Part shown: one piece after another, positions 53,046-53,384 of the stretch | How positions within the stretch are numbered: position 1 is the first letter of the stretch | How the letters are laid out: each line of letters starts with the position of its first letter | Notes under the pieces: generated by a model | Database searches by the model: none | What the model was told of the DNA's origin: nothing | The model's input: the letters and a program-made list of their open reading frames with translations, nothing else | Origin: a virus | Taxonomy: Duplodnaviria; Heunggongvirae; Uroviricota; Caudoviricetes | Direction: 5' to 3' (one strand) | Length of the DNA stretch: 64,000 nt | IMG/VR virus record: IMGVR_UViG_2778261179_000006 | Span: 488-64,487 of that record | Made by a program: the position numbers and the translations under genes

Positions 53046-53105
53046 GAGCATTCTTGGTGGACCTGTAGATTGGGATATGAACCCGTTACAGGAGAATGCT
53101 CTTAC
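53046..53105. ncRNA. Stem-loop element A: 11-bp stem enclosing conserved core GTAGATTGGGATATGAACCCGTTAC
   Basis: AAGAGCATTCT pairs with AGAATGCTCTT; core is shared with element B. Confidence 0.3.
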
Positions 53106-53299
53106 CTGTTACGTGCTCCGTTTCGTGGAGCTAACGGCGGGTGATCGGGCCGCACCAGGCTGGACTTATTTCAGCGTTATGCTCATGCCAGAGAATCAAA
53201 CTGTGATGGTCGGTGCTGAACTCCGACACAGGGTTGTAGCAAGCCCCGCAAAGCGCGCACTACTGTAGTTGCGGCACATCAGCCTGTGCATTCACCACA

Positions 53300-53384
53300 A
53301 TGTTGAGAACACTGGTTGTCACGCTGCAACGCAACATTTATTCGTAGATTGGGATATGACCCCGTTACGCCAGTGTTCTCAACG
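53300..53384. ncRNA. Stem-loop element B: 14-bp stem enclosing conserved core GTAGATTGGGATATGACCCCGTTAC
   Basis: GTTGAGAACACTGG pairs with CCAGTGTTCTCAAC; different stem sequence around the same core. Confidence 0.3.

Follow-up and report, generated by a model that had tools for sequence, protein, structure and literature searches.

Two hairpins in the ban operon leader of phage P1 are copies of a conserved phage RNA motif resembling a tRNA anticodon arm

The window analysed, a stretch of 64,000 nucleotides from an IMG/VR virus record, is phage P1, and the elements under study are two hairpins within it, A and B, which enclose a shared 25-nt core. Over the 741 bases around the hairpins, identity is 100% to Punavirus P1 records and 99% to the P1 reference. 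All real genes of the locus lie on the minus strand, namely dmt, tRNA-Asn, tRNA-Thr, genes for a 78-aa membrane protein and an SPFH/Band-7 lipoprotein, tRNA(CAU) and ban. The P1 reference places the C1-controlled promoter/operator Pban (Op72) just upstream of the region, with a "dicF-like region" after it. A and B are located, along with tRNA-Asn and tRNA-Thr, in the untranslated minus-strand leader of the C1-repressed ban operon. An earlier note on this DNA had placed the hairpins between upl and the tRNA cluster; the gene it meant is the minus-strand gene for the 78-aa protein, whereas the upl of P1 is a plus-strand open reading frame (ORF) lying on top of the hairpins.

Inverted-repeat searches located the arms of hairpin A at 53044-53054 and 53093-53103 (11 bp, exact), extending to 53041-53054 and 53093-53106 (14 nt, 93% complementary), and the arms of hairpin B at 53302-53315 and 53370-53383 (14 bp, exact), extending to 53293-53315 and 53370-53392 (23 nt, 91% complementary). 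The core occupies 53065-53089 in A and 53344-53368 in B, with 24 of 25 positions identical and the two copies 279 nt apart. With up to three mismatches allowed, these are the only two sites in the 64-kb window (0.00 expected from 100 shuffles), and homologues are present in other phages. Minus-strand folds compared with shuffled sequence gave z = -5.46 for A and z = -6.19 for B. Both hairpins, with the 11-bp and 14-bp stems and the nearly identical core that the earlier note had described, are therefore present where it located them, although its start for A (53046) was off by 2 nt and its limits for B by 1-2 nt.

The conserved segment, which had been regarded as a loop between divergent stems, is indeed conserved but is itself a hairpin, here called P2. 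It consists of a variable lower helix, an invariant AC/AAYC 2x4 internal loop and, above this, three G-C pairs closing a 7-nt loop of the form N-U-CAU-A-N; in the P1 copies the internal loop is AC/AAUC and the 7-nt loop (U/G)UCAUAU, with CAU at its centre. An alignment was made of 28 distinct P2 sequences from several lineages, gathered with patterns that fixed AC-GGG ... CCC-AA. All 7 lower-helix pairs changed on both sides in these sequences, each column showing 4-6 types of pair. Scored for covariation, the alignment reached 0.525, against 0.199 for shuffled alignments (0 of 500 shuffles reached 0.525), and the score collapsed once the partners were slid by 1-3 columns. Paired cells amounted to 90%, compared with 31-48% after the same shifts; the 90% is inflated by the requirement of at least 4 contiguous lower-helix pairs in the alignment, whereas the variety of pair types is unaffected by it. 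A smaller P2 set, also analysed for covariation, was in line with the larger one. The covariance model built from the 28-sequence alignment (R1) detected A with 47.0 bits and B with 47.3 bits, both at E = 2e-11 and on the minus strand, the next match in the window scoring 10 bits; R1 also found P2 in 12 of 82 loci that had been gathered through an unrelated motif. The core-bearing hairpin thus covaries across independent phage lineages, and of the two options raised earlier, a structured RNA or a hairpin-presented binding site, a structured and conserved RNA can be stated with high confidence.

Beyond P1, the P2 element was found in Yersinia phage PY54, between methyltransferase and holin genes, and in lambdoid and N15-like prophages of IMG/VR, where it follows a Q-like gene and the terminator of that gene. 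Hairpin B of P1 and the Yersinia-type elements share the same predicted three-way junction despite unrelated outer-stem sequences, and in predicted folds this topology is the same among variants of B and in the Yersinia homologues, where the hairpin equivalent to the second junction hairpin of B (P3) covaries. Per-sequence folds of the P1-type and Yersinia-type elements agree on topology; RNAalifold run on a MAFFT alignment of the two types gave no outer-helix consensus, the lineages being out of sequence register. In a duplex-energy test of the arms, the cognate arm was the best partner in 9 of 25 rows, with related lineages and chance matches interfering. A further branch of the family, which includes GC-rich phages, carries GACGGGCUCAUAACCCAAC, with a 13-nt centre identical to E. 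coli metY, and some of its elements directly adjoin tRNA-Thr, tRNA-Arg or tRNA-Ala. In the leader of e14-like E. coli prophages, the order is ymfK, a DicF-like terminator, the P2 element and yfdP. The e14-type 5' arm plus P2 matches 2520 of 5426 complete E. coli genomes (~46%) at ~91% identity. R1 gave nothing significant in K-12 Qin, K-12 CPS-53 or HK022, from which P2 is absent. A genome-wide scan with the core 17-mer returned mostly chance-level matches, the homologous ones being confined to Escherichia and Yersinia. Permissive cmscan searches against Rfam 15, covering the window and the PY54, lambdoid, e14-like and GC-rich loci, assigned no family to A, B or P2, and a full-text literature search with the core and the GCCGGAACCGUAACCGGC motif yielded nothing relevant. 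A and B are accordingly two copies of a conserved phage RNA motif that is not in Rfam and was not found in the literature searched.

Several observations determine the strand. The tRNAs, the Pban promoter/operator and ban all lie on the minus strand, which favours this strand for the hairpin RNA. All four long-stem units of the region (A and B, and units C and D described below) are predicted to fold more stably on the minus strand than on the plus strand, at -35.0 vs -31.3 kcal/mol for A, -49.3 vs -43.0 for B, -41.6 vs -34.4 for C and -46.3 vs -32.9 for D. In natural P1-like variants, pairing is retained as G:U by 15 distinct stem substitutions on the minus strand, compared with 5 on the plus strand; the three changes of one B variant (L034) all yield G:U on the minus strand, where the plus strand would have A:C. 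Wherever its context was examined (P1, PY54 and loci L291, L294, L278, L289 and L264), P2 also has the orientation of the flanking genes or tRNAs. On these grounds the RNA is encoded on the minus strand, not on the plus strand that the earlier note had used.

The plus-strand ORFs overlying the hairpins had been taken for spurious, and this judgement holds, although the ORFs correspond to upl and plp of the P1 annotation, the first of which had lent its name to the wrong gene. Annotations of the P1 reference and of RCS47 include both ORFs, and as both cores share one reading frame, the repeats could be viewed as a duplicated peptide motif, VDWDM(N/T)PL, in real proteins. Against this, 191 distinct substitutions in P1-like relatives are flat by codon position (19/24/23 and 41/43/41) and comprise 134 non-synonymous changes, 54 synonymous changes (~2.5:1) and 3 new stops, and the ORFs of relatives carry frameshifting indels, with sizes of 1, 2, 7, 10 and 13 nt. 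Neither purifying selection on codons nor an intact frame in relatives was found for upl and plp, and the ORFs have no match to a Pfam or NCBIfam family. In addition, the start codon of P1 Upl is an ATG inside the A loop that is deleted in Ro157c2YLVW, plp overlaps tRNA-Thr in antisense, and the Yersinia-type homologues contain 1-nt indels and no ORF. The coding reading is rejected; there is scarcely any chance that upl and plp are real genes.

The earlier note had counted two elements, but A and B are part of an array of at least four long-stem units (D, C, B, A) interleaved with tRNA genes (Table 1). The units share the base CACAAC(A/G)G ... C(C/U)GUUGUG. In the A and B modules the base reads on into GUGAAUGC, and the interior of the helix differs between the copies yet remains complementary. 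Common to the units are also a 3' flank consisting of GGUGAAUGC and a small hairpin, and another small hairpin 5' of the unit. All four closing helices span ~19-35 pairs and were scored as long enough for RNase III (about two helical turns, at least 20 bp of double-stranded RNA). The proposed link to the tRNA cluster is borne out in several phages, in which the elements directly adjoin tRNA genes: hairpins abut tRNA 3' ends as tRNA-Thr followed by C in P1, tRNA-Ser followed by a hairpin in D6 and P7, and tRNA-Thr followed by P2 in L278. The Rfam tRNA model scores tRNA-Thr and tRNA-Asn of P1 at 72.9 and 65.0 bits. The tRNA-like remnant mentioned in the earlier note is probably unit C, which has a T-arm-like interior and receives no tRNA call from ARAGORN or Rfam; the T-arm-like sequence in this unit, which abuts the 3' end of tRNA-Thr, is a perfect AGGGUUCGAAUCCCU.

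Table 1. Features of the ban leader region of phage P1 (window coordinates).
Feature	Position	Strand	Description	Basis
tRNA-Asn(GUU)	53695-53770	minus	co-oriented with hairpin units	ARAGORN and Rfam tRNA model
tRNA-Thr(UGU)	53617-53692	minus	co-oriented with hairpin units	ARAGORN and Rfam tRNA model
Unit A	53035..53113	minus	closing helix of ~19 pairs with two 1-nt interruptions, enclosing P2	inverted repeat and fold
P2 of A	53059..53095	minus	CCUGUA-AC-GGG-UUCAUAU-CCC-AAUC-UACAGG, holds the core	covariance model
3' flank of A	53013..53035	minus	GGUGAAU and small hairpin; start of STnc100-like leader	repeat family, cmscan
Unit B	53293..53392	minus	23-pair closing helix and three-way junction bearing P2 and P3	inverted repeat and fold
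P2 of B	53338..53374	minus	CGUA-AC-GGG-GUCAUAU-CCC-AAUC-UACG, holds the core	covariance model
P3 of B	53317..53336	minus	second junction hairpin, UGUUGCGU-UGCA-GCGUGACA	predicted folds
3' flank of B	53274..53296	minus	GGUGAAU, then GCACA-GGCUGA-UGUGC hairpin	repeat family
Small 5' hairpin of B	53392..53409	minus	GCCGG-AACCGUAA-CCGGC, immediately 5' of B in RNA sense	fold
Unit C	53535..53608	minus	long-stem hairpin directly 3' of tRNA-Thr; interior T-arm-like AGGG-UUCGAAU-CCCU	inverted repeat and fold
Unit D	53973..54055	minus	nearly perfect hairpin of ~35 pairs; base CACAACAGG...CCUGUUG shared; without P2	hairpin scan and fold
STnc100-like structured leader	52918..53038	minus	ends in terminator-like hairpin and U-run, just upstream of first ORF	
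Intrinsic-terminator-like hairpin	54244..54263	minus	within P1-annotated "dicF-like" region (misc_feature)	terminator scan
ORFs upl and plp of P1 reference	52939-53268 and 53269-53646	plus	judged not genes	annotation

The 3' flank of B recurs in PY54, D6 and RCS47 with compensatory stem changes. The 3' flank of A is homologous to the dicF-dicB intergenic region of Qin and corresponds in the cmscan alignment to positions 31 onward of STnc100. More than 120 IMG/VR stretches contain the small hairpin 5' of B as an exact sequence match (L158-L239; L124, 2531-2548), some of them from lambdoid/N15-like and GC-rich phages that have no relation to P1. The hairpin usually stands after a variable hairpin and before a terminator, a P2 element or the start of a gene, and it has no Rfam family.

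Just 3' of A, the leader segment shares homology with the dicF-dicB intergenic leader in K-12 Qin (see also L292, 2936-3109). It matches Rfam RF02076 (STnc100) with 37.8 bits and E = 7e-6, which is sub-threshold against a gathering score of 47, and the match adjoins unit A without lying over it. The Rfam DicF model (RF00039) gave no match in 51000-55000 at E up to 10; a sub-threshold DicF match of 29.9 bits was found just upstream of the related element in L276. The ban leader region is homologous to the dicF-dicB and ymfK-yfdP early-left leaders of lambdoid prophages, and it resembles a lambdoid dicF-dicB region enlarged by tRNA and hairpin cassettes. The strong terminator-like hairpin of the dicF-like region stands between Pban and the tRNAs, and transcription must pass through it to reach the tRNAs and ban. 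Further downstream, the genes for the 78-aa membrane protein and the SPFH/Band-7 lipoprotein (275 aa) occupy 51840-52884 on the minus strand and replace tciA-tciB-tciC of the P1 reference, a replacement also present in RCS47 and Ro157c2YLVW. ARAGORN calls the tRNA at 51737-51812 (minus strand) tRNA-Met(CAU), and the P1 reference names it tRNA-Ile2, a tRNA that is read as Ile after lysidine modification.

A described RNA bears on the expression of the array. sRNA-17 of E. coli K1, a 193-nt RNA mapped by rapid amplification of cDNA ends and detected by Northern blotting, is encoded in an e14-like prophage, and its deletion raised yfdP ~95-fold (PMC7719688). The full-length primer used in that work begins with CGTTGTGGTGAATGC (PMC7719688), which is the conserved junction at the 3' base of the hairpin units. 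An insertion of 196 bp in the array of RCS47 is near-identical to sRNA-17, and the primer starts at its GUUGUGGUGAAUGC junction. By our reading of the probe and primer sequences, sRNA-17 would have the same sense as yfdP, the Northern probe being complementary to the sense strand. sRNA-17 thus provides indirect experimental support that RNA of such arrays is made in the sense orientation with one end at the junction. The study itself made no connection of sRNA-17 to P1-like phages or to DicF-like terminators (PMC7719688). The dicF-dicB region of Qin and STnc100/PasD resemble the P1 locus in the 3' flank of A and the leader that follows; unlike the P1 hairpins, none of these described RNAs, sRNA-17 included, contains P2.

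The likeness of P2 to a tRNA concerns the anticodon arm. Its loop fits the anticodon-loop register, with U33, CAU and A37, and a U at position 33 with a purine at position 37 is found in A (UUCAUAU), B (GUCAUAU) and the e14-type element (CUCAUAA). Three consecutive G-C pairs closing the anticodon loop are a hallmark of initiator tRNA, and GGG/CCC is present in 28 of 28 distinct P2 sequences, the search patterns having fixed it. When a search pattern left the 7-nt loop free, CAU stood at its centre in 225 of 227 instances. One branch of the family carries GGGCUCAUAACCC, identical over 13 nt to positions 29-41 of E. coli metY (tRNA-fMet). Two matches to the core 17-mer (L133 and L137) are genuine tRNA-Met(CAU) genes in which the matching string is the anticodon arm and variable loop, the 3' side of P2 together with AAUCUA corresponding to the 3' strand of their anticodon stem and the variable loop. 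Judged from these comparisons, P2 looks like the anticodon arm of tRNA-Met, especially that of initiator tRNA, and is probably tRNA-derived. Unlike tRNA-fMet and tRNA-Met, it has no cloverleaf, D-arm, canonical T-arm or acceptor end, and it contains the AC/AAYC internal loop. A reading of the core as a T-arm (GGG-UUCAUAU-CCC) was dropped, since position 58 would be U and an anticodon loop fits much better. A search of the 64-kb window for a trans target returned only chance-level complements, with 3 mismatches, to the loop and core. Some relatives outside P1 (L261, L265 and L266) carry a hairpin after P2 with the loop CUCCUAA or UUCCUAA, a sequence that looks like an anticodon loop (CCU) and, at the same time, like the anti-Shine-Dalgarno sequence. 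In the e14-type element, the bases CUCAU of the P2 loop are complementary to AUGAG at the start of yfdP ~100 nt downstream, a candidate cis pairing; L207 (9040-9075) was a further locus considered with these loops.

The best explanation, which we consider probable, is that A and B are paralogous, non-coding structured modules co-transcribed with tRNA-Asn and tRNA-Thr, namely stalks, putatively processed by RNase III, that present the anticodon-arm-like P2. The mechanistic part of this explanation, comprising processing and recognition of the CAU loop, is held with low confidence. Each module would fold co-transcriptionally, and the long near-perfect helices would be cut at their base by RNase III-type processing, so that tRNAs, small RNAs and the mRNA downstream would become separate molecules. 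The working part would be the invariant CAU loop, which a reader of the tRNA-Met/fMet anticodon arm would recognise in trans or which might pair with an AUG-containing sequence. A more specific version, in which P2 is a functional mimic of the initiator-tRNA anticodon arm, serving as a decoy, sensor or docking site in temperate-phage leaders beside tRNA or DicF-like genes, is tentative and has a modest chance of being correct. Candidate readers of such a mimic are VapC-type toxins, which cleave tRNA-fMet in the anticodon loop, methionyl-tRNA synthetase (MetRS) or TilS, and the 30S P site with initiation factor 3 (IF3).

A number of observations weigh against the favoured explanation. On the tRNA side, P2 closes its loop with three Watson-Crick pairs (GGG/CCC) compared with five in a tRNA anticodon stem, the AC and AA at positions 27-28/42-43 not forming standard pairs; position 32 is G in B, and rare P2 variants lack U33 and R37 (loops CCCAUCC and CUAACCC). 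ARAGORN calls three tRNAs in the window and none at A, B or C, and the Rfam tRNA model (RF00005) does not match A or B even at E up to 10. The invariance of AC, GGG, CCC and AA is partly a product of the search patterns. The long closing helix is missing from some P2-bearing lineages, so the RNase III idea cannot cover the whole P2 family, and neither transcript, cleavage or binding data for P1 itself nor a P1 transcriptome paper came up in the literature searched. Individual copies are also dispensable in nature: in SJ46-type phages (L005, 1640-1720), recombination between the 25-nt cores has removed 279 bp, and a single P2 remains with non-complementary arms, and in Ro157c2YLVW (L006, 1661-1713) the 13 nt forming the top of the P2 of A are deleted. 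In close relatives of P1 the hairpins vary at least as much as the spacers, an uninformative comparison whose sample is shallow and partly ascertained via the core.

The same lesions and the same variability speak for a relic, in which A and B would be decayed remnants of tRNA(CAU) genes or junk from cassette shuffling, functionless in P1. P1 relatives differ by whole units with mosaic breakpoints at the hairpin arms, and cassettes come and go among them: RCS47 has the extra 196-bp unit (L002, 2209-2340; L294, 1602-1797), D6 and P7 have the interior of A replaced by tRNA-Ser and another hairpin, and Ro157c2YLVW has an added tRNA-Tyr. As copies are lost or broken and show no extra constraint over spacers, and as the core matches the anticodon arm and variable loop of real tRNA-Met genes, there is room for a tRNA(CAU) relic in the P1 copies. 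A relic would, however, lose its pairing, whereas the outer stems differ between copies and remain complementary, stem substitutions are biased to G:U on the transcribed strand, and P2 is kept with compensatory changes where its surroundings are unrelated (P1, PY54, e14-like prophages and GC-rich phages). We regard the relic as a minority possibility. A DNA-level role is quite improbable, whether as cruciform or single-strand DNA recombination sites bounding the tRNA and small-RNA cassettes in the manner of attC or as single-strand initiation signals. The coincidence of breakpoints with the hairpin arms and the bases ACAAC...GUUGU, and the retention of structure while sequence varies, as in attC sites, would suit it, but plain homologous recombination at repeats explains the breakpoints, the SJ46 deletion between cores being an example. 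The preference for G:U pairing on one strand, which is relevant to RNA only, disfavours a DNA site. Moreover, the bases (C)ACAAC ... GUUGUG(G) read RYRYAAC/GTTRYRY and misfit the attC consensus RYYYAAC/GTTRRRY, and no integrase or other dedicated recombinase is annotated beside the arrays in P1, PY54 or e14-like prophages.

A role in transcript elongation or insulation has a slim chance. The units would then structure the 1.5-kb leader, or carry nut- or rrn-like signals against Rho and internal terminators on the way to ban, the signals being a boxB-like hairpin, a pyrimidine-rich boxA-like 3' arm and a boxC-like UGUGG base. The leader does contain at least two terminator-like hairpins (54244-54263 and from 52918 onward), and in lambdoid prophages, members of the family follow terminators in leaders of the early-left or late type. 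In A and in the RCS47 and D6 units, the 3' arm reads UGCUCUUU or UGCUCUUAC, which we take to resemble the boxA of rrn and lambda. The 3' arm of A at 53093-53106 (minus sense AUGCUCUUUCC), like its equivalents in L002 and L003, is boxA-like and is followed by the boxC-like GUUGUGG. Nevertheless, the boxA-like string lies in a perfect duplex, such arms are no general feature, a crude scan having returned 3 among 53 arm pairs, and the invariant CAU loop is left unexplained. No similarity to the put RNA of HK022 emerged, and HK022 is without P2, R1 giving no significant match there, although the put sequence itself was not compared. According to the put paper, only ten put sequences are known.

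Comparison with established RNA systems places the proposed processed-stalk modules among several partial analogues. The known RNase III processing hairpins, such as those of the metY-rimP-nusA operon, T7 early RNA and the rRNA processing stalks, likewise have helices of at least 20 bp between a tRNA and downstream genes or flanking a small structured RNA; unlike them, the P1 units are putative substrates and carry a conserved anticodon-like hairpin, which is not known from the established sites. The thrS operator of E. coli, an mRNA leader that reportedly imitates an anticodon arm and is bound by threonyl-tRNA synthetase (ThrRS), also has two copies of a hairpin of this kind in an untranslated leader, whereas the P1 elements have no downstream synthetase gene, lie 279 nt apart and recur in leaders of unrelated operons. 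YrlA (RF02553) mimics the acceptor, T and D arms and binds Rsr through a long stem. It shares with the P1 units a long stem bearing a tRNA-like module and is sometimes phage-borne; the P1 module, in contrast, mimics the anticodon arm, and the only Rfam YrlA match in P1 (18.6 bits) lies over the real tRNAs.

Collectively, the analysis describes a compact RNA motif that can be scanned for by a covariance model and is shared by P1-like plasmid prophages, Yersinia phages and a prophage leader carried by about half of the complete E. coli genomes. It also reinterprets upl and plp, long-standing "genes" of P1, as artefacts over a non-coding RNA array on the opposite strand. The modular, cassette-like evolution of the region would still be explained even if the elements were only processing or insulating hairpins. 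If the likeness to an anticodon arm is functional, the motif would represent a new class of tRNA mimics in phages, one in which the initiator-tRNA anticodon arm alone is copied, and this would bear on tRNA-targeting toxins, defence systems and the way in which phages organise their tRNA and small-RNA cassettes.

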